Assembly (NCBI GenBank): GCA_965198265.1
Contig: CBDAPB010000036.1
Location: 481,431 to 545,430, forward strand
Length of the DNA: 64,000 nt
DNA from: Terriglobia bacterium
GTDB taxonomy: Bacteria; Acidobacteriota; Terriglobia; 20CM-2-55-15
Direction of reading: 5' to 3'
The position numbers and the translations under genes were made by a program. Below the pieces are notes generated by a model. That model was given only the letters and a program-made list of their open reading frames with translations, ran no database searches and was not told the origin of the DNA. Below, piece by piece: positions 411 to 36,259 of this stretch. Position 1 is the stretch's first letter. Each line of letters begins with the position of its first letter.

Positions 411-1997
411 ATGATACGCAAAAACGTCGCTGAGATCCTCGATCGACATGTCACCTTCGAACTGGAGGCCATAGACCGCATGTACCTGAATGGCTACGTA
501 CCGTCCCTGCAGACCGGCGCGGGGTTCGCCCACTTCGAGAAAACCCAGTTGGGCGTGCGTGTGCCCTCGACAGCCATGATCGCGCCGATGAGCCGCCGGT
601 TCGTGGAAGCCATGGAAGACTTCGTCCAGGCCGAACAGGTCGACCTGGTGAGGTTCCGGAAGGGGCAGCGAAAAGACGACGTGGCCCAGCAGTATCTGGC
701 CCGGTTCGAGGGGGACGAAGGCGTCCTGTTCGTCGGCAAGGCCCAGGAGAAGGCGAATGTCTTTCGTACCGAGAAACGGCAAGGAAGCGACGGCGCCCGC
801 TACCCCTGGATCATCCGGTCCACGGCGATGGTGAACCATTATTACGTCTACCTGGTCGATCGCGACTTCGGTCCCTTGTTCATCAAGTTCTGCTCCTACT
901 TTCCCTATGCGGTGAAGGTCTGTCTGAATGGCCACGAGTGGCTCAAACGCCAACTCACTCACCGGCGCATCGCCTACACTCCGCTCGATAACGGTATTCA
1001 CTCCAGCGCCGATCCCAAACGCGTGCAACGGATCGCCGACCAACTCGACAGTTCGAAGATCGAGGCCCTTTTCCGCAAGTGGCTCCGCCGCCTGCCCCAT
1101 CCGTTCACCGCGGCTCATCGGGACGCCGGGTATCGCTATCGGGTCTCCATCCTCCAGGCCGAATTCGCCTTAACCCAGGTGCTGGACCGGCCCCACACCG
1201 GCCGGTGTTTCTTTGAAGAAATCATTCGGGAGAATCTCGACATCGGACGCCCCGATCGGATGCAACTGATCTTCAACCGCCGCGTCACCCGCCGGACGCC
1301 CGGCTCGTTTCGCACCCGGGTCCTCACCCAGGGCGTGGTCCCCTCGCTCCATGTCCAGTACAAGAAATCCAAGATCAAGCAGTACCACAAAGAAGGGCAG
1401 GCCCTGCGGACCGAAACCACCATCAACGATACCTACGACTTCGCCATCGGCCGGGCTCTCATCAATCTGCCCGCACTGCGGGAGATCGGCTTCGCCGCCA
1501 ACCGGCGCCTGCTGCGCGTCGAACACCTGAGCCACGACTGTTTCATCGGCCAACGCCACATTGATGCCGTCAGCCAGCCGATCCGCGTCGACCGCCAGCG
1601 CGCCTCCGGCCTCCGCTTCGGCGACCGCCGGGTCCTGGCCCTGATGCAGACGCTGTGTCTGTTCGCTCTCCACCCGACCGGCTTTCGCCATCGCGACGTG
1701 CGCGACCGCATCGCACAACTGCTGGGCCACGACCGCCACTACGCTGCCGGCCAGACCACCTATGACCTGCGGCGTTTGCGCCTCCACGGACTCATCCAAC
1801 GCGTTCCGCGCAGCCACCGCTATCGCATTACCTCCCTCGGCGCCCACATGGCCATGCTCTACGTCCGTCTCTGGGCCCGTGGCCTCCGCCCGGCGGCCTC
1901 GGTCCCAACCTCAGGGTCCGCCCGCGGTCCCAAGACCCTCGAACGTCTCGACGCCGCGCTCACCCACTTCCTTCAGGAGGCTTTACTTGTTGCCTAA
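411..1997 (+). CDS. Putative transposase of an unclassified element; Rep_trans-like motifs plus C-terminal winged helix
   Basis: 528-aa ORF with RBS AGGAG upstream. KQYHK...ALRTETTIN resembles the Y-x-K / R-x-E motifs of Rep_trans initiators; C-terminal YDLRRLRLHGLI...YRIT looks like a wHTH. No DDE or HUH motif seen. The ORF is solid; the function is inferred. Confidence 0.65.
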   Translation: MIRKNVAEILDRHVTFELEAIDRMYLNGYVPSLQTGAGFAHFEKTQLGVRVPSTAMIAPMSRRFVEAMEDFVQAEQVDLVRFRKGQRKDDVAQQYLARFEGDEGVLFVGKAQEKANVFRTEKRQGSDGARYPWIIRSTAMVNHYYVYLVDRDFGPLFIKFCSYFPYAVKVCLNGHEWLKRQLTHRRIAYTPLDNGIHSSADPKRVQRIADQLDSSKIEALFRKWLRRLPHPFTAAHRDAGYRYRVSILQAEFALTQVLDRPHTGRCFFEEIIRENLDIGRPDRMQLIFNRRVTRRTPGSFRTRVLTQGVVPSLHVQYKKSKIKQYHKEGQALRTETTINDTYDFAIGRALINLPALREIGFAANRRLLRVEHLSHDCFIGQRHIDAVSQPIRVDRQRASGLRFGDRRVLALMQTLCLFALHPTGFRHRDVRDRIAQLLGHDRHYAAGQTTYDLRRLRLHGLIQRVPRSHRYRITSLGAHMAMLYVRLWARGLRPAASVPTSGSARGPKTLERLDAALTHFLQEALLVA

Positions 1998-2084
1998 AAC
2001 TTGACTCAAATACTCAGACTTTCGTTCTTCAAGACTTCTAAAACTTGACTCAAATACTCAGACTTTCGTTCTTCAAGACTTCTA
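1994..2084 (+). repeat. Exact tandem duplication of a 44-bp unit at the 3' end of the 528-aa gene
   Basis: AAACTTGACTCAAATACTCAGACTTTCGTTCTTCAAGACTTCTA at 1997-2040 and 2041-2084, each preceded by CTA. Confidence 0.95.
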
Positions 2085-2356
2085 GTGACCTGTAACAGTG
2101 CTATCGGTACCAGCGTTCGGCGGAACGGCGTCGGATTCTAGGAGTGACGCCCGAGCCAATGCTGTTTCATTGCGAGGGCGTTACGACACCGAAGACGGTG
2201 CCGTTCCGCCGAACCCTTTGGGCCGATGGGGGTTGCGGGCGATCTCTTTGTCGGAAGCCGTCACCGATGAAAGAGCATCGCTTTCCGCCTCCCTCCTCGA
2301 CCTCGCCCGCAAGACCCATCGGCGATGGTACCGATAGCATTGTTACAGGCCACTAG
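2082..2356 (+). mobile_element. 275-bp MITE, family A copy 1 (CTAG-bounded, ~31-bp imperfect TIRs)
   Basis: CTAGTGACCTGTAACAGTGCTATCGGTACCA ... TGGTACCGATAGCATTGTTACAGGCCACTAG; near-identical copies at 25231-25505 and 35985-36259. Confidence 0.92.
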
Positions 2357-12044: not shown

Positions 12045-12472
12045 GGTACAAGTCTAAGGGACATGGCTCCAAGGATTGATCCTTTTGTTTTTCGGAAATC
12101 ATCTGAACAGAGGAATCCGCGGACGTATTCGCCAAACGCGATCATTCCGACTGCAGGCTTCCCTTTCTTGCTCGCTACCCCTTTGCTGATCGCCTCCGCC
12201 CAGCGCGATGGCTCGACGAACACTCTTTGTGCACTTACCGAATCCGGCCTGTCAGTCCTTCCTTGAATGGTGGGTGAAAATTGGTTGCTGTCAAGGTTGG
12301 TTCCACGTAACATCCACGTAACATAAAGACAGGTACCTGGCACGTACAAGTACCGAGTTAGGTGGTTAACAGCCACGTCCACAGGATTTCGGAATGTGGT
12401 TCCCGTGGAGTGGACGGTGGATGCATCCGGCTTGCTCATGTGTGGATGGGTACATTTAAAATGGAGGCAAAT

Positions 12473-15355
12473 GTGAACAAGAGCAGACTGAGCATGACGC
12501 TGGGGGTCCTGTTGCTCGTTTTCTTGGTGTCCGCTCCCGCTTTCTCGCAGGTCACGACGGGAGTAGTCACCGGTCGAGCCCAGGATACTTCCGGCGCCCT
12601 GATACCGGGCGTTGAGGTTACGGTCTCGAGCCCGGCGATGATCATCGGCGGCGGTTCGCGGCTGGTCATCACCAACGAACAGGGCAGCTATCGCGTGACA
12701 CAGCTTCCCGCGCCCGCTGTATACACGGTTACATTTTCACTTCCCGGCTTCCGCACCCTCAACATCGAGGGTGTGAACGTGGCCGGCGGAGCGACGATGA
12801 CGATCAACGGCACACTGGAAGTCGCGACGGTCGCCGAAACGATAACGGTCGTCAGCGAGGCACCGACGATCGACCTGGAAGAAGCAACGACCGTGGTCAA
12901 CTGGGGCCAGAAGCTGATGGACGAGCTGCCGTACGGCCGCAGCATCCGTGCCTTGAGCCGGCTGATTCCCGGCTTTAACCTCACCCACTTCGACGTGGGC
13001 GGGAACACGGCCGGCGGGTCGGCCAGCTTCGGTGCGGAGCTGTACGGTCGCCGGGGCGGCGACGAGATCAACTACGAAGGCATGAACTGGGGATCGACCT
13101 TCGGCGACTACGGAACGTACAGCGAGATCCAGTTCGAGACCTCGGCCAAGGGCGCGGAAGCCCGAACGCCGGGAGTCAACGCCAACCACATCATCAAGTC
13201 GGGCAGCAACGAGCTGCACGGCAACATCATGGCGGCCATTCAGGACGACAGCTTTCAGAGCGACAACATCAACCAGTCGCTGCTGGACCGCGGCCTGAGG
13301 CCATCGGACAACTCTTTCATCCGTTACCACGACCTCAACGGCGATGTCGGCGGTCCGATCATCGAGGACAAGTTCTGGTTCTACTACGCGCACGGCAACA
13401 TGTTCACGTCGACGAACGTTCCGGGCTTCGACTACCCGGACACGGGAGAGCTGCAGCCCTACACGACGCGGCTGGACTTCACAACGTCGAAGTGGACTTT
13501 CCAGTTGACGAACAACCAGAAACTGGAAGCGTCCCACCAGTTCAGCCGGAAGGACACGCCCTGGCGCGGCGCGGCCACCCAGTTGCACCCGTTGGCCAGC
13601 CAGCATCAGCTGTCGTGGTCCGGAATCGGTCCGACCCTGAAGTGGACCTACATCATCAGCCCGACGATGACGCTCGATGCGGCGATTCAGCGTGGCGGGT
13701 ACTGGTGGCCGTCGACCTCGCACACGAACGACATCCGGCGGGTCGACCGGAACAGCGGCTTCACCGACGGCCATTGGGGCACGGTCTACCGGCGGCCGAT
13801 CCGGTGGCAGTGGCCGGTCAACTTCAGCTGGTTCACGAACGCGGGCCAGGTCAGCAACGAGATCAAGGTCGGCTACATGTCCTGGTGGCAGACTCGGACC
13901 ACCCACACCGAGGGGTGGCCGAACCAGCAGATCTACCAGTATGAGTCCACGGACGCGGAAGCGGACGCTGGGATCTTCTTCAACAATCCGGACCGGGTGG
14001 AAATCTACGACTACCCGAACACGGAGCGGTACCAGAACTTCTACGACACCGTGTTCTTCAACGACAAGATCACGGTGAACCGCAATCTGACGATGAACTT
14101 GGGCCTGCGTTACGAGCGGTACGGTTCGTCACTGCCCCGGCAGGGTAGAATTACCGTCGGACCCTTCTCGTCAGGTGTCACGTATGAGGCCCGGGATCGG
14201 GGCGAGTTTCCGTCCTACACCTCCATCGTGCCTCGCGTGTCCGTGATCTACGACATCACGGGTGAGGGAACACTGGCCCTGAAGTTCAGCTACGGCAAAT
14301 ACGCCAGCGAGAATCGCGACGCGCGGAGGGTCAACCCGAACTCACGGACTCGGTGGCGGTACGAGTGGGACGGCACGATTCCCTTCGTGCCGGACAACGG
14401 TCCGGACGGGATCTTCGGGAACTCCGATGACCCCCAGCTGCAGTCGATCTCGGGCGGTGGTGGTCTTGCTTCGGTGCGGGACCTGGACCCGAACCTGGAC
14501 AACCTGACCATGGACGAGTTCACGGCCGGCATCGAGATGGCGCTCGGCACGAACTACGTCCTACGGGCCACCGCGATCCGCAAGCAGGACAAGGGCGGGT
14601 ACAAGACCGTCAACCGGGCGCTGCCTTACGAAGCGTTCACCGACGTCCGATATGGAGTCGACATCGGCCGGGATAACCTCGCCGGCACTGCCGACGATCG
14701 GCAGATCGAGATCTGGTCCGTGCCGCGGTCCCACCCGGGGTTCGGTAAGGTCGACGAGATCTTCCAGAACTTCGACGAGAATGAGGGCCGAGACATGTAC
14801 ACGGCCTTCGACTTTGCGTTCAGCAGGAGGTACGCGGAGGGCTACACCTTCACCGTGAACCACACGAGCAGCTTTGCGAAGCGGCGGGATGCGGACCCAC
14901 AAAACCCGAACCAGCTGCTTTACACCTTCGCGAACCAGTTCCCGGAGTGGGATCACGTCTTCAAGGTCAACGGCGTGTATGACCTGCCGTTCGGGATGCA
15001 TTATTCGACGACGCTGAATATGCAGTCTGGCGCGTACTACAACCGGACGACGCGGCTCCGGGACGCCCAGCGCCGGAATCAGACCGTCGAGGTCGAAGGC
15101 CAGGTCGGCCGCTACGACACGGTTCGGCTCTGGGATAACCGGATCTCAAAGACGTTCCAGCTCAACGACCGGCATTCGATCGAAGCGATGTTCGACCTGT
15201 ACAACACACTGAACTCCGCAGCGGTGATCCGGCACGAGAACCGCAACGGCAGGAACTACCTGAAGCCGTTGGCGACGAGAGGGATCGATGCGGCTGCGGC
15301 ATCGCCGATCCTGTCTCCGCGCATCTTCCGTCTCGGAATGCGCTGGAGGTTCTAA
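12473..15355 (+). CDS. TonB-dependent receptor (Oar-like, N-terminal carboxypeptidase-regulatory-like domain), paralog 1
   Basis: GTG after GGAGG; signal peptide; DTSGALIPGVEVTV; IKSGSNELHG; GGPIIEDKFWF; C-terminal RLGMRWRF. Confidence 0.9.
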   Translation: MNKSRLSMTLGVLLLVFLVSAPAFSQVTTGVVTGRAQDTSGALIPGVEVTVSSPAMIIGGGSRLVITNEQGSYRVTQLPAPAVYTVTFSLPGFRTLNIEGVNVAGGATMTINGTLEVATVAETITVVSEAPTIDLEEATTVVNWGQKLMDELPYGRSIRALSRLIPGFNLTHFDVGGNTAGGSASFGAELYGRRGGDEINYEGMNWGSTFGDYGTYSEIQFETSAKGAEARTPGVNANHIIKSGSNELHGNIMAAIQDDSFQSDNINQSLLDRGLRPSDNSFIRYHDLNGDVGGPIIEDKFWFYYAHGNMFTSTNVPGFDYPDTGELQPYTTRLDFTTSKWTFQLTNNQKLEASHQFSRKDTPWRGAATQLHPLASQHQLSWSGIGPTLKWTYIISPTMTLDAAIQRGGYWWPSTSHTNDIRRVDRNSGFTDGHWGTVYRRPIRWQWPVNFSWFTNAGQVSNEIKVGYMSWWQTRTTHTEGWPNQQIYQYESTDAEADAGIFFNNPDRVEIYDYPNTERYQNFYDTVFFNDKITVNRNLTMNLGLRYERYGSSLPRQGRITVGPFSSGVTYEARDRGEFPSYTSIVPRVSVIYDITGEGTLALKFSYGKYASENRDARRVNPNSRTRWRYEWDGTIPFVPDNGPDGIFGNSDDPQLQSISGGGGLASVRDLDPNLDNLTMDEFTAGIEMALGTNYVLRATAIRKQDKGGYKTVNRALPYEAFTDVRYGVDIGRDNLAGTADDRQIEIWSVPRSHPGFGKVDEIFQNFDENEGRDMYTAFDFAFSRRYAEGYTFTVNHTSSFAKRRDADPQNPNQLLYTFANQFPEWDHVFKVNGVYDLPFGMHYSTTLNMQSGAYYNRTTRLRDAQRRNQTVEVEGQVGRYDTVRLWDNRISKTFQLNDRHSIEAMFDLYNTLNSAAVIRHENRNGRNYLKPLATRGIDAAAASPILSPRIFRLGMRWRF

Positions 15356-15485: not shown

Positions 15486-15762
15486 TTAGCAGCCCGTGGC
15501 AGAACTCTGCAGGGCCGCGTTACGGCCAAACGGGGCCGGATTCTAGGAGGCGAGGACGAAATAATGCTCATTCATTGAGAGGAGTCGCCGACAACGAAGA
15601 CGGCCCCGTTTCGCCGTAACCCGAAGGGCGCAGGGGGGTTCGGGCCGCAGGCTTTGTCGTTCGTCGGTCACGATGAATGATCATCGCTCCGCTCCTCTCT
15701 TCGCGCCTGCAACCCGAAGACCCCTGCGCGCGACCCTGCAGAGTTTTGCCACGGGCTGCTAG
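15486..15762 (+). mobile_element. ~277-bp MITE, family B (different TIRs, core related to family A)
   Basis: TTAGCAGCCCGTGGCAGAACTCTGCAGGGCCGCG ... CGCGACCCTGCAGAGTTTTGCCACGGGCTGCTAG; shares GGATTCTAGGAG, TTCATTG, GAAGACGG, GATGAA and CATCGCT with family A. Confidence 0.82.
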
Positions 15763-17987: not shown

Positions 17988-18400
17988 ATTCTTGCCTGCT
18001 CACAACGCGTGAAAACGGGGGCTACGGAACAGGCTCCGTTTAGACACGCCAGTTCCAGAGGATCGCCCCGTCACGCAGCCGTTATATATCAATGGTTATA
18101 CTATTTAGCTACTCTTTAGAAGTAACTCAATATATGTCTGGGGAGTAGTTACCCTGCCTTGAGCGCTCTGCTAGCATACCCACGGTTTATTGTAGCCACG
18201 CAAGGAGCCGGCCCAGCTCCAGGCCGCTGGACCGAACCCAGTGGAAGCCCCCGTAGCGCACGCCTGAGTAGAGTCGCAGATCGCCAGCGCGAACAAACCG
18301 TTCCTGAGATGGAACCCGACCCGAAATACGACGTTCGGGCAAAGAATGTCGGTTCGTAATGATACGGAAGAGGCATCAGATCGAGCCATGTGGAGGGTCT

Positions 18401-21265
18401 ATGAAGTTTTTTAGAGGAAGAGTATCGCTGTTTGCCGCTTCTGTTCTGGTGCTTGCTCTGGCCGCGCCAGCCTTCCCACAAGCCCTGACCGGAGGTATCA
18501 ATGGAACATCCACGGACGCTTCCGGCGCATTGATCCCGGGCGTGGAAGTGACAGTCAGCAGTCCGGCCATGATCGAAGGCTCACGATCTGCGATCACCAA
18601 CGAAACGGGGAGCTATCGATTCCCGCTACTGCCCCCAGGTAGCTACACCGTCACTTTTGTGCTTCCGGGTTTCGCCACGCTGAATATTGAAGACGTGGTG
18701 GTGCCTGTCGGAACCACCATGACTATTAACGGGACGTTGGAAGTGGCGACGGTTGCGGAAACAATCACTGTTGTCAGCGAGACGCCGACGATCGACCTGC
18801 AGGATGCTGCAAAGTCCATCAACTGGGGCAAGCAGGGTCTGGAGGATCTTCCCTACGGTCGCGCCATACGCGGTCTGACGGCGATGATTCCGGGGATGGT
18901 CAATCGACAGTATGACGTCGGTGGAAACACAAAGGGAGGTCCGGCCGGCGTAGGCTCCCGCTCGTATGGGCGAAGAGACGGCGACGTGGTGATGTACGAC
19001 GGCATGGTGTGGGATCAGACCTTTGGCGACTACGCCGCGTTCGAGGAAGTCCAGATCACGTCCGCCGCAAAAGGCGCCGAATCGATGAATCCGGGTTCAA
19101 CACTGAGCTTCGTGATCAAGTCGGGCAGCAACGATTTCCACGGGACAACCTACATGGACTGGGAGGACGACAGCTTCCAGAGCGACAACATCGGCGAGGA
19201 CCTGTTGGCCCAGGGATTCAAGCCGTCGAGCAACAAGTTCACTCGCTTCAACGAGTTCAACTTCGACATCGGCGGTCCAATCATCAGGGACAAGTTCTGG
19301 TTCTACGTCTCGTGGGGCGACATGTACTCGGGACTGCTTATTCCCGGTTTCATTTCCCTCGAGACAGGCCAGCCGCAGACCTTCTTCACCAGCCTGAAGA
19401 CTTTAACTACCAAGTTCACTTACCAACTGACCAACAGCATGAAGCTGGAAAGCCATGGATCATTTGGTCGGAAGTGGCAGCCCTACCGCAATGCCGGGTC
19501 GGCCGTTCCGGCCGAAGCCACGCACGATCAGCTCTCCTACACGGGTACCGGTCCGACGCTGAAATTGACCAACATCATCAGCCCAACGATGACGATGGAC
19601 GTGGCGCTGAGCCGGGGCGGCTACTACTGGCCGAGCCGATCGCACACGACCGACATCCGGCAGTTCGACCGCTCGACTGGGGAGACACGTGGCTCCTGGA
19701 ACGTGCGTTACCTGCGTCCGATTCGGTGGCAGTATGACGCCAACTTCAGCTGGTTCGGCGAAATCGGCGGCCGAAACAACGAGATCAAAACCGGCACTCT
19801 GAATTGGTGGAGCAAGGCCTATCGCCTGAATTTCGGATTCCCGAACCAACAGGAGTACCACTACCGTAGCCGGCCGGGCGACGCGACTTTCTTCGAGCGG
19901 CCGAATCGGGTCCGGGTGTACGACTATCCGAACAACGAGATAAGTGTCCAGAATTACAAATCGTGGTACATCAATGACAAGCTCACGGTGAACAACCACT
20001 TGACGCTGAACTTCGGCGTCCGGTGGGACCATTATTCGTCCTACCTGCCCGAGCAGGGCAACCCGGGAGACGGACCGTTCGCCACCAAGAACCTCTTTCC
20101 CGAAAACCGGGATTTCCCGGTGTACAACTCCGTCGTGCCGCGATTTTCGATGGTCTACGACGTGACCGGTGAAGGCAAGGTGGCGCTGAAGGCCAGCTAC
20201 GGCCGGTACGCCGGAGGCGGTTCCGGAAGCCGAACAACTCCCGCTCCCAATGCCACTCACGTGAACCCGGCCGGGAGGACGAGATGGCAGTACGCTTGGG
20301 ACGGCAGTATTCCCTACGCTCCGAACCCGGCGGATCTGCAGTCGGTCTCAGGAGGCGGCGGCGGAATCCAGCGGATCGATTCGAACGTGGAACTTCCCTA
20401 CATGGATGAGTACACGGCGGGAATCGAGCTGGGTTTCACCCGCGACATGACGATGCGGTTCAACGTCGTCCGAAAACAGGATTTCGGTGGGTTCTACGTC
20501 AAGGACCTGGCCCGGCCCTACGAAGCCTACACAGACGTTCGTTACGCGGTGGACCCGGGCCGGGATAACATCGTGGGAACCGCTGACGACGGTCAGTTGC
20601 AGGCGTGGTCGGTCCCCAGAAGCTGGCCGACGTTCGCCGATGTCAACGACCTCTATACAAATGTCGCCACTGATGAGGCCAAAGACGTCTACACGTCTTA
20701 TGAGATGACGTTCAACAAGCGGCTCGCGGACGACTGGTCGATCCTGGCCAGCTACCAGTCAGACTTTGCCAAGATCCGCTGTTCGGAGCGCCGTAGTCGC
20801 GGATGTGATCGCATCCCGCGGAACCCGAACGACTTGCTCTACACCTTCAACCTTCCGAGGTGGTATCACTCGCTGAAGCTCCACGGGCAGTACAACCTGC
20901 CCTACGGTGTGATGTTCTCCAGTTCTTTCCGATCGCAGAGCGGCGATTACTATGGCCGCGAAGCCCTGATGCGGAATGCGCTGAACTCCACGGTCGTCAT
21001 CCCGGTCGAAGAGCAAGCCGGCCGACTCCCCAGAGTGAACCTGTGGGACAATCGCTTTTCGAAGACGTTCCAGATCAACGATCGTCACTCGATTGAAGCG
21101 ATGATCGACTTTTTCAACTCGCTGAATGTCAGTACCGTCCTCAGGGTCGAGACACGGAACGGTCCGAGATTCGGGCTGGTGCGCTCTGCCGGTACGGGTG
21201 CGACTTCGGCGAGTCCGATCATTCCCGGGCGAATCTTCCGTCTGGCTGCGCGTTGGAGGTTCTGA
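18401..21265 (+). CDS. TonB-dependent receptor, paralog 2 (closely related to 12473-15355)
   Basis: ATG after GGAGG; shares TMTINGTLEVATVAETITVVSE, LPYGR, RGGYYWPS, FQINDRHSIEAM; ends RWRF. Confidence 0.9.
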   Translation: MKFFRGRVSLFAASVLVLALAAPAFPQALTGGINGTSTDASGALIPGVEVTVSSPAMIEGSRSAITNETGSYRFPLLPPGSYTVTFVLPGFATLNIEDVVVPVGTTMTINGTLEVATVAETITVVSETPTIDLQDAAKSINWGKQGLEDLPYGRAIRGLTAMIPGMVNRQYDVGGNTKGGPAGVGSRSYGRRDGDVVMYDGMVWDQTFGDYAAFEEVQITSAAKGAESMNPGSTLSFVIKSGSNDFHGTTYMDWEDDSFQSDNIGEDLLAQGFKPSSNKFTRFNEFNFDIGGPIIRDKFWFYVSWGDMYSGLLIPGFISLETGQPQTFFTSLKTLTTKFTYQLTNSMKLESHGSFGRKWQPYRNAGSAVPAEATHDQLSYTGTGPTLKLTNIISPTMTMDVALSRGGYYWPSRSHTTDIRQFDRSTGETRGSWNVRYLRPIRWQYDANFSWFGEIGGRNNEIKTGTLNWWSKAYRLNFGFPNQQEYHYRSRPGDATFFERPNRVRVYDYPNNEISVQNYKSWYINDKLTVNNHLTLNFGVRWDHYSSYLPEQGNPGDGPFATKNLFPENRDFPVYNSVVPRFSMVYDVTGEGKVALKASYGRYAGGGSGSRTTPAPNATHVNPAGRTRWQYAWDGSIPYAPNPADLQSVSGGGGGIQRIDSNVELPYMDEYTAGIELGFTRDMTMRFNVVRKQDFGGFYVKDLARPYEAYTDVRYAVDPGRDNIVGTADDGQLQAWSVPRSWPTFADVNDLYTNVATDEAKDVYTSYEMTFNKRLADDWSILASYQSDFAKIRCSERRSRGCDRIPRNPNDLLYTFNLPRWYHSLKLHGQYNLPYGVMFSSSFRSQSGDYYGREALMRNALNSTVVIPVEEQAGRLPRVNLWDNRFSKTFQINDRHSIEAMIDFFNSLNVSTVLRVETRNGPRFGLVRSAGTGATSASPIIPGRIFRLAARWRF

Positions 21266-25230: not shown

Positions 25231-25505
25231 CTAGTGGTCTGTAACAGTGCTATCGGCACCATCGCCGATGGGTCTTGCGGGCGAGGTCGAGGAGGGAGAC
25301 GGAAAGCGATGCTCTTTCATCGGTGACGGCTTCCGACAAAGAGATCGCCCGCAACCCCCATCGGCCCGAAGGGTTCGGCGGAACGGCCCCGTCTTCGGTG
25401 TCGTAACGCCCTCGCAATGAAACAGCATTGGCTCGAGCGTCACTCCTAGAATCCGACGCCGTTCGGCCGAACGCTGGTACCGATAGCACTGTTACAGGTC
25501 ACTAG
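25231..25505 (-). mobile_element. 275-bp MITE, family A copy 2
   Basis: CTAG at both ends; reverse complement of 2082-2356 with few substitutions. Confidence 0.92.
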
Positions 25506-35172: not shown

Positions 35173-35988
35173 GGCGTGTTAACACTAACGTAGCGCCTCG
35201 ACGATGAGAGCGAAGTGAAGGAAGGCGAGGAACATGACGTCGAGTTTATCGAAACGGGAGAAGATACGCCGGAAACCTTTGAGTCGGCGGAAGAGCCTCT
35301 CGACTTCGTTCCTGCGGCGGTAGAGAAGGCGGTCGTATTCCCACGGCTCCAAGCGGTTGCGCTTGGGCGGCACGACGGGAATCCACCTAAAATCCAGAGC
35401 CAATTGGCGGGTCTGGTCGTCTTGGTAGGCACGGTCCATCAGCAGCGGCAGCGGCGCGGGCAACGGCCCCAGGCCGGCGAGCAGATCGCGGCCCTGCGGG
35501 GCATCGTGCGCTTGGCCGGGCGAGAGCGCAAACGTTATTGCCGTTCGAGCATTCGCGGCAACCAGATGAATCTTGGTGGTCCATCCGCCGCGGGATTTGC
35601 CGATCGCTTGCGGACCGTTTTTTTTAACGCACCCGTGCCGTCGGGATGAACCTTCACAATGGTTGAGTCCATCGAAACGGCTTCGATCCGGATGCGGACC
35701 AGTTGCTCGCGCTGGAGTTTTTCGAAGACGGCGTCGAGCACGCCGTTCTTGGACCAGCGGTTCATCCGGGTGTAGATGGTGTGCCAGTTGCCAAAGCGCT
35801 TGGGCAGACCGCGCCACTTGCAGCCCTGCTCAGCAACATACAAAATGGCGTTCAAGACCGCCAGGTTCGAAAGACTGACGTTGCCCCGCTGACGCGGCAG
35901 TTCCGGCTCGATGCGACAATACTGCTCCTGTGTGATCTCCATGCCTGATTATAAAACATTTATGCTCATTAGTGTTAACACGCCCTAG
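35169..35988 (-). mobile_element. IS5-family (IS427-like) insertion sequence, 16-bp TIRs, CTAG flanks
   Basis: CTAG|GGCGTGTTAACACTAA ... TTAGTGTTAACACGCC|CTAG. Confidence 0.92.
35185..35942 (-). CDS. IS5-family transposase in two frames joined by a -1 frameshift
   Basis: OrfA GCKWRGLPKRFGNWHTIYTR...MDSTIVKVH; OrfB IGKSRGGWTTKIH, MDRAY, YRRRNEVERLFRRLK; slippery A8 (T8 on plus strand) at 35618-35625. Confidence 0.9.
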
Positions 35989-36259
35989 TGGCCTGTAACA
36001 GTGCTATCGGCACCATCGCCGATGGGTCTTGCGGGCGAGGTCGAGGAGGGAGACGGAAAGCGATGCTCATTCATCGGTGACGGCTTCCGACAAAGAGATC
36101 GCCCGCAACCCCCATCGGCCCGAAGGGTTCGGCCCAACGGCGCCGTCTTCGGTGTCGTAACGCCCTCGCAATGAAACAGCATTGGCTCGGGCGTCACTCC
36201 TAGAATCCGACGCCGTTCCGCCGAACGCTGGTACCGATAGCACTGTTACAGGTCACTAG
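35985..36259 (-). mobile_element. 275-bp MITE, family A copy 3, sharing its CTAG with the IS5
   Basis: Same sequence family as copies 1 and 2; CTAG 35985-35988 is common to both elements. Confidence 0.92.

Follow-up and report, generated by a model that had tools for sequence, protein, structure and literature searches.

Fold-back MITEs (miniature inverted-repeat transposable elements) have been described in several bacterial groups: Correia/NEMIS in Neisseria, ERIC/IRU in enterobacteria, RUP and BOX in pneumococci, and Nezha in cyanobacteria. The target duplication of Correia elements is TA, and BOX elements are also modular. In this study, a MITE family was analyzed in a 64-kb stretch of contig CBDAPB010000036.1 from a Terriglobia bacterium (the window) and in the genome that contains it. 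As the earlier families are generally described, this family is like them in being short, non-coding, high in copy number, and mostly intergenic, with terminal inverted repeats (TIRs), a short target duplication, and strong hairpins. It is set apart from the same descriptions by a three-way Y shape with two arms of about 100 nt that are inverted relatives of each other, by the presence of these arms behind several TIR classes and in at least 10 genera, by measured two-sided changes, and by the lack of a matching Rfam family. The element is a Y-shaped, non-autonomous transposon of the DDE type, with a TA duplication in CTAG, exchange of modules, pairing kept between lineages, and neutral decay within them. 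The interpretation favored here, at somewhat better than an even chance, is that this is a modular superfamily of MITEs with a fold-back shape under selection in transposing source copies, probably as single-stranded or cruciform DNA. Fold-back MITEs are known as a kind; the modular two-arm superfamily appears to be new. No description of the element was found in the literature on MITEs of sponge symbionts, on IS1182 and CTAG, and on MITEs with compensatory change, and one may be in print elsewhere.

The motif GGATTCTAGGAG occurred exactly at four sites in the window: 2133 and 15538 on the plus strand, and 25443 and 36197 on the minus strand. The four elements around it could be aligned end to end, and 25231–25505 was 97% identical to 35985–36259. 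The copies were delimited as follows:
2085–2353, plus strand: MITE copy A1, a member of subfamily cl0 that measures 269 bp with its first G and last C included, based on sequence, alignment, genome-wide copies, and flank statistics.
15489–15759, plus strand: MITE copy B, 271 bp long and one of 19 genomic copies of subfamily cl6, based on sequence, fold, and clusters.
25234–25502, minus strand: MITE copy A2 (subfamily cl0), based on alignment and genome-wide copies.
35988–36256, minus strand: MITE copy A3 (subfamily cl0), based on alignment and genome-wide copies.

The lengths given in an earlier note on this DNA, 275 and 277 bp, take in the CTAG flanks; the actual element measures 269 bp (A) or 271 bp (B). 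Its count of three family A copies was right for the window, but the genome holds 71. Copy A1 is flanked by TA at 2083–2084 and 2354–2355, within CTAG on both sides. The TIR of copy B begins with GCAGCCCGTGGCAGAA; its left flank reads TTA-G and its right flank C-TAG, the hyphen marking the element boundary. The length was 264–271 bp, below the MITE limit of about 600 bp. A 70-aa frame is open in copy A, and the same ATG leads to a stop after four codons in copy B. A coding function of the core was rejected, as the substitution pattern was paired rather than codon-like and the frame was broken in copy B. The element is a non-coding MITE: the short length, TIRs, TA duplication, and many dispersed copies bore out the identity first proposed for it.

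The folding of the element was examined for RNA and DNA. Copy A folded as RNA at −163.9 kcal/mol (z = −11.8), which none of 200 shuffles equaled, and copy B at −173.9 kcal/mol (z = −11.4). As single-stranded DNA, copy A folded at −91.4 kcal/mol (z = −11.1). Its two strands were equally foldable, with RNA energies of −163.9 and −163.2 kcal/mol. The fold is a Y, in which a 28-bp terminal stem closes a left arm, a two-pair mini-hairpin, and a right arm. The parts of copy A1 are as follows:
2085–2112, plus strand: left TIR, pairing with 2326–2353 as the 28-bp basal stem in RNA and DNA folds.
2115–2214, plus strand: left hairpin arm with basal helix 2115–2129/2200–2214, based on fold and covariation.
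2215–2221, plus strand: mini-hairpin CC-TTT-GG at the junction of the two arms, where the element is most conserved, based on the fold.
2222–2323, plus strand: right hairpin arm with basal helix 2222–2242/2303–2323, based on fold and covariation.
2326–2353, plus strand: right TIR, based on sequence and fold.

Both basal arm helices had been named before from inspection, and they are present at those positions in the minimum-energy folds, the second with a 2 × 2 internal loop. In the left arm, GGATTCTAGGAG and CGACACCGAAGAC lie in internal loops, and the apex is a CAATG...CATTG hairpin. The right arm has an apical CGATG...CATCG hairpin and resembles the reverse complement of the left arm. Aligned with its own reverse complement, the core scored 136, compared with 85 ± 13 for shuffles (n = 100). 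Terminal stems of 28–29 bp were found in all five large subfamilies.

Covariation was measured in an alignment of 54 elements, consisting of 13 subfamily representatives of this genome and 41 elements from 11 other genomes. One near-duplicate and two elements without recognizable TIRs were left out. In the basal arm helices, 96.8% of 1714 cells were paired, compared with 82.1 ± 0.6% in shuffles, none of 500 of which reached the observed value. Two-sided change was found in 19 of the 32 basal pairs, and controls slid by 1–3 columns were 25–45% paired. Left-arm helices 1–2 were 96–99% paired, with 11 of 17 pairs changed on both sides; right-arm helix 4 was 96.7% paired, with 8 of 13. The mini-hairpin pairs were CG in 53 of the 54 sequences, and AACCC was invariant. 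For the full arm structure derived from copy A, pairing was 82.3% compared with 73.5% in shuffles and 35–46% in slid controls, and 47 of 74 pairs showed two-sided change. Distal helices 5 and 9 were paired in just 67% and 42% of cells. One cause is that the arms of some subfamilies are not homologous, which also explains why RNAalifold recovered only the basal helices from the mixed alignment. A separate count of 71 sequences, non-redundant at 95%, gave 91% pairing in the left arm, 85.5% in the right arm, and 93% in the TIR stem, with 30–47% for shifted partners. These statistics ignore kinship, and related sequences can exceed shuffles without any structure. The slid controls and the many distinct pair types (for example, CG 23, GC 13, and AU 12 at one pair) speak against a mere kinship effect. 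The proposal that the stems differ in sequence while compensatory changes keep the pairing was upheld well beyond both kinds of control.

The whole genome assembly (labeled G000; 6.37 Mb, 60% G+C, 39 contigs, 92% complete) was searched with an iterated nhmmer profile. The search returned 493 hits, of which 385 were near full length; the latter included 190 overlapping pairs on opposite strands, a consequence of the likeness between the element and its reverse complement. Once the hits had been oriented, 194 full-length loci remained on most contigs, with about 100 further partial hits. At about 269 bp each, these loci make up about 1% of the genome. About 15 subfamilies were distinguished, with sizes at 90% identity of 71 (A), 49, 26, 19 (B), 13, 4, and smaller.

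Three TIR classes were found in the genome: T1, GTG(A/G)CCTGTAAC...; T2, GCAGCCCGTGGCAGAA...; and T3, GTGTCCTGA(G/C)TCAGAA.... Consensus lines showed left arms of two types combined in several ways with right arms of at least four. In subfamily cl4, a T1-type TIR is joined to the distal right arm of cl2, which itself has a T2 TIR, and cl8, cl13, and cl16 keep the common left arm with different right arms. This mosaic of TIRs and arms indicated that modules had been exchanged between subfamilies. Three single-arm derivatives (L095, L096, and L097) had lost an arm exactly at the arm base, which suggests that the hairpins form in vivo as DNA. Insertions of about 25–35 bp lay within an arm, after GGATTCCAGGAG, in copies L079–L082 of one relative (G022) and within the right arm in copies L044 and L058 of another (G016); the arms thus tolerate and pass on extra hairpin material.

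The distribution of the family was investigated in related genomes. Of 24 other genomes in the same bacterial family, 17 contained matches to the A element, in 10 of the 26 genera sampled; outside the family, one of 16 genomes gave a match, which was borderline. Copies 97–99% identical to A were found in G004, of the same genus, and in G021, of another genus. In other genera, the arms alone were in common (about positions 18–250 of the query), at 70–80% identity and behind different TIR types, among them GTGGCCTGTACCACCC, GTGTCCTGTCCCATAAATAG, GTGTTGCGTTTCATAAATAG, and GTGGTCCCCGCCAGATATAG. The same arms were thus seen behind several TIR types both here, as had been claimed from the window, and in other genera. 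The 534-aa IS1182-family transposase of this genome was also found, 100% identical and in at least 15 copies, in G047, which belongs to a different genus. These identities, of the IS1182 transposase in G047 and of the MITE A copies in G004 and G021, suggest that mobile elements have recently been exchanged between genera. The junction pattern was also sought in public genome contigs, a set that seems to lack relatives of the window, and 17 loci were returned; of these, only L139, in an Acidobacteriota metagenome-assembled genome (MAG), was a true relative (E = 2e-21) and L129 partly so. Six loci in Armatimonadota MAGs (L134–L136, L140, L141, and L143) were rejected as chance pickup of another repeat with no match to the MITE profile; that repeat is built on the palindrome GAACCCCCCTG(G/C)GC(G/C)CAGGGGGGTTC. 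No match to the element was found in a plasmid collection. Weak leads, gene content among them, suggest that the host is an acidobacterium associated with sponges.

The target site was examined from the flanks. CTAG was present on both sides in 97 of the 178 scored copies with recognizable ends. Among 172 listed flank pairs, the base touching the element departed from G once on the left and from C three times on the right. The outer base departed from C or G in 30 pairs on the left and 29 on the right, the sides varying independently; TTAG was combined with CTAG five times, and CTAG with CTAA six times. As the inner G and C are fixed and the outer bases vary independently, a 2-bp TA duplication is indicated, with G...C belonging to the element, and a 4-bp duplication does not fit. 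The flank sequences therefore fit a target duplication of TA, preferably inside CTAG. Insertion of a G...C element into C-TA-G recreates CTAG at both junctions. CTAG was about six-fold under-represented in the genome, with 3,943 sites compared with about 22,900 expected from composition, and 32 of 388 MITE flanks abutted the terminus of another element of the same end type. The family thus recreates its own rare target and seeds nested arrays. This rare sequence is nonetheless the preferred context of the MITEs and of several insertion sequence (IS) families with CTAG-recreating G...C ends.

The TIRs of families A and B had been called unrelated, which did not hold: all begin with G, have a terminus like G-N3-CC-(C/T)-G-T, and have the TA/CTAG target in common. 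Judged by sequence, the TIR types seem to have diverged within one or two related classes of transposon ends (IS1182 and IS4 families).

Transposases that could act on these ends were sought in the genome, which contained at least 150 DDE_Tnp_1 matches. NCBIfam assigned proteins of 442, 444, and 534 aa to the IS1182 family (NF033551), proteins of 393, 403, and 407 aa to the IS4 family, and others to IS1380 and further families. The ends of resident ISs lie in CTAG context with G first: CTAG-GAGTCTGCGCGGCAGAAGG, CTAG-CAGCCTGTCGGAC, and CTAG-TGTCCGG.... Of 34 other genomes in the bacterial family, which were sampled for autonomous partners around IS1182 genes only, 14 carried IS1182 relatives. 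The IS ends there were CTAG-CAGCCTGTCGGACT, CTAG-GAGCCTGTCGG(C/G)AATA, CTAG-GAGCCTGTAGGGG, and CTAG-GAGCCTGCGCCGTAGG, and the MITE ends in the same genomes were CTAG-CAGCC(C/T)GTGGCAGAA and CTAG-GAGCCTGTGGTAGAAG. In short-word BLAST, the first nine letters of T2 ends (CTAG plus five) equaled both termini of the element with the 534-aa IS1182 transposase, and the first nine letters of T3 ends equaled both termini of the element with the 393-aa IS4 transposase. The weight of such short matches lies in their position. On the basis of these outermost bases and the CTAG context in common, DDE transposases of resident IS1182-like elements and, for some TIR types, IS4-like elements may mobilize the MITEs in trans.

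The IS1182 elements of the same genomes are like the MITEs in their G...C ends, CTAG context, and abundance, and their terminal 9–13 bases resemble T2 MITE ends. Unlike the MITEs, whose complementarity of about 28–34 bp continues into the arms, these ISs have inverted repeats of about 16 bp, and the interiors are unrelated at E 0.01. The cores of the 13 subfamily representatives gave no match at that threshold to nine resident IS types and a 1.84-kb unit with a 528-aa open reading frame (ORF), compared with 300-bp flanks included and one MITE lying in a flank set aside. A simple internal-deletion product of a resident IS was ruled out for these nine types and the 528-aa-ORF unit, and the core did not align to the ends of any of them; such an alignment had been named in advance as an outcome that would count against a structured element. 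Matching of TIR types to autonomous ends, also suggested at the outset, reached only the outermost bases of T2 and T3 and yielded no exact partner. When TIR-like ends were paired at distances of 330–6000 bp, six candidates were obtained, all enclosing unrelated genes or IS256/IS1634-type transposases, and nothing was in common beyond TIR-like ends except duplicates of the MITE plus neighboring IS.

IS630 elements have a TA duplication and prefer CTAG. The MITEs are like those derived from IS630/Tc1-mariner in both respects, but unlike them have no DDE_3 (PF13358) partner in this genome: no match was found among seven candidates scored, with control genomes positive, although at 92% completeness the absence is unproven. 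No DDE_Tnp_4 (PF13359) gene was found in the same 92% complete genome.

Two other repeated units were observed near the MITEs. An IS of about 800 bp with a 214-aa DDE_Tnp_1 frame lies at about 35221–35580 of the window (minus strand) and at about 30 other genome sites. Its ends are GG(A/G)CGTGTTAACAC and its flanks TA/CTAG, an insertion style like that of the MITE with different ends, and one copy abuts a MITE. The 1.84-kb unit occupies 199–2081 and carries the 528-aa ORF (411–1997, plus strand), which has no Pfam or NCBIfam match. A second copy, 99.9% identical, lies on the same contig, and both copies, ending in ...CTTCTA-G, directly adjoin a MITE end. The unit showed no inverted repeats, and its last 44 bp are tandemly duplicated in the window (1994–2037 and 2038–2081). 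It may be an insertion sequence of an undescribed family.

A further interpretation is put forward tentatively: the arms could be a portable, selected single-strand module (folded DNA, possibly RNA) that is needed in cis for efficient mobilization and has been moved by recombination between IS1182-like and IS4-like ends. If so, the module would be a "transposition-enhancer fold" parasitizing several transposases at once, and a testable case of fold-back single-stranded DNA as substrate or cofactor of bacterial DDE transposition.

Whether the fold acts as RNA or DNA was judged from wobble pairs. On the plus strand, 107 G-U and 26 A-C were counted in the left arm, compared with 16 G-U and 37 A-C in the right one; these counts are inflated by common ancestry. 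This mirror-imaged polarity is as expected for the two inverted halves of a dyad-symmetric transposon; a single transcript would give the same sign in both. The earlier note had suggested that this could be a mobile structured RNA carried as cargo by different transposase ends; the arms would then be a mobile gene for a non-coding RNA or an RNA with a regulatory role in cis. The strong covariation and a few nearly fixed unpaired motifs in the left-arm set (GGATTCTAGGAG, CGACAACGAAGAC, and the AACCC...GGGC junction) are in its favor, as is MITE sequence in assembled contigs of four sponge metatranscriptome runs from one study. Such contigs cannot show transcription, strand, or ends, and they are the only RNA evidence; a 306-nt contig covering 2076–2356 continues into an IS1182 end and so derives from another copy. 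Both strands fold equally, the wobble bias is opposite in the two arms, and about 190 neutrally decaying copies are unlike RNA genes. No promoter-like or terminator-like site was found within the element. An Rfam search had been recommended; Rfam 15 gave no match at gathering level in the 64-kb window, and at E up to 10 only noise, the best hit on the element being a plant MITE-derived miRNA hairpin with 22 bits compared with a gathering threshold of 168. An RNA cargo is therefore quite unlikely. The broader proposal of a selected RNA or single-stranded DNA fold stands as regards selection on the fold; its RNA half is probably wrong, and its DNA half is the better fit.

The decay of resident copies was examined from rare variants, defined as those seen in one or two copies of the five large subfamilies. 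Per site, unpaired positions carried 0.0096 such variants, the TIR stem 0.0117, and the arm stems 0.0082. The 208 rare arm-stem changes comprised 95 mismatches, 52 G-T pairs, 40 A-C pairs, and 21 Watson–Crick pairs through a changed partner; in the TIR stem, 24 of 119 rare changes had a pair-keeping partner. As stems and loops changed at equal rates and G-T was not in excess over A-C (52:40), the resident copies decay without visible pairing constraint or strand bias, which also counts against an RNA function.

The compensated changes among these variants are far above the level of independent 1% changes, which bears on a mutational origin without selection. In that case, intra-strand template switching or gene conversion in quasi-palindromes would copy one stem side onto the other, producing two-sided changes in one step that are then spread by amplification. 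A template-switch mechanism has been published for RNA hairpins (PMC8794818). Consistent with it, a GC pair has become CG in 8 of 71 subfamily A copies as a two-base CC/GG switch together with its partner, visible in the window copies, and arm deletions fall exactly at stem bases. Correction of every copy, however, predicts fewer changes in stems, whereas the rates were equal, and most one-sided changes remain mismatched (95 mismatches and 40 A-C of 208). The rare doubles may simply be members of rare sub-lineages. Template switching alone leaves the persistence of the same arms at 70–80% identity, across genera and behind several TIRs, unexplained. As a sufficient explanation it is unlikely, and template switching in palindromes may supply some of the paired changes.

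The location of the copies relative to genes was also investigated. Crude gene calls covered 80% of the genome; 186 of the 194 copies lay outside them and 8 inside, and the median distance to the next gene was 78 bp. Where the neighboring genes lie on the same strand (112 copies), the orientation agreed with that of the genes in 70 copies and was opposite in 42 (two-sided p about 0.01, with the same crude calls). This skew would suit an RNA and also a role at host level. Such roles have been proposed for ERIC, REP, BOX, and Correia elements, and here the hairpins would serve neighboring genes as mRNA stabilizers, processing sites, attenuators, or supercoiling sinks. The intergenic location agrees with this, and on the plus strand an AGGAG lies in the left arm and a run of CCTCC in the right one. 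Any transposon, however, would be expected between genes, since insertions that disrupt genes are selected against. The hairpins are not followed by a T-run, conservation tracks subfamily lineage rather than genomic position, and the equal substitution rates of stems and loops in resident copies stand against a host-level role, which is rated as very unlikely. A host or RNA function of each copy is improbable.

In the favored interpretation of a fold-back shape selected in source copies, the fold would be selected at element level, in those few copies still transposing. Fold-back of one DNA strand, or a cruciform, would join both ends as the TIR duplex and raise mobilization. A fold-back strand was proposed long ago for MITE amplification. 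Folded single-stranded DNA sites handled by tyrosine or HUH enzymes are known from integron attC, IS200/IS605 ends, and REP/REPIN with RAYT. The present family is like these in that structure is more conserved than sequence and a folded DNA strand is proposed as functional. Unlike this family, those systems are without TIRs and a TA duplication, whereas the MITE ends and target look DDE-type; no tyrosine or HUH enzyme was linked to the element, and no search was aimed at such enzymes.

Several observations weigh against this interpretation. The likeness to IS ends extends just 5–9 bases beyond CTAG, with BLAST E values of about 1.6, and no autonomous element with exact MITE ends was found in the 39 contigs of the 92% complete genome. 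A published IS1182 member is listed with a 4-bp rather than a 2-bp duplication (PMC3281130). The 21 compensated changes among 208 in the arms could equally reflect a mutational process. Unpaired columns were more variable than paired ones (0.97 compared with 0.64 bits in the left arm, and 0.97 compared with 0.59 bits in the right arm), and such variable loops give no separate sign of sequence-specific recognition, the few motifs excepted. The orientation skew is not predicted by a purely symmetric DNA role. A role of the folded strand as transposition substrate is an inference from the symmetry of the element and from the older amplification proposal.

One further feature of the window was noted around copy B. 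Stretches 12722–13834 and 18644–19756 are 74–81% identical at a constant offset of 5922 bp and lie within two paralogous TonB-dependent-receptor-like genes (12362–15355 and 18359–21265); copy B lies between these genes, just after the first.

MITE interiors are usually deemed irrelevant in passive deletion products. Here, the interior is the conserved part: with paired changes, it has lasted in different genera and behind different ends, even as single copies rot. RNA-motif discovery would be misled by the family, since it passes tests of covariation though it is probably no RNA gene. The pattern of a conserved interior in decaying copies allows selection on the transposing lineage to be told apart from that on the host. 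With about 190 copies, several subfamilies, and natural single-arm deletions, the family is a clean system for testing the role of a folded strand in DDE transposition.

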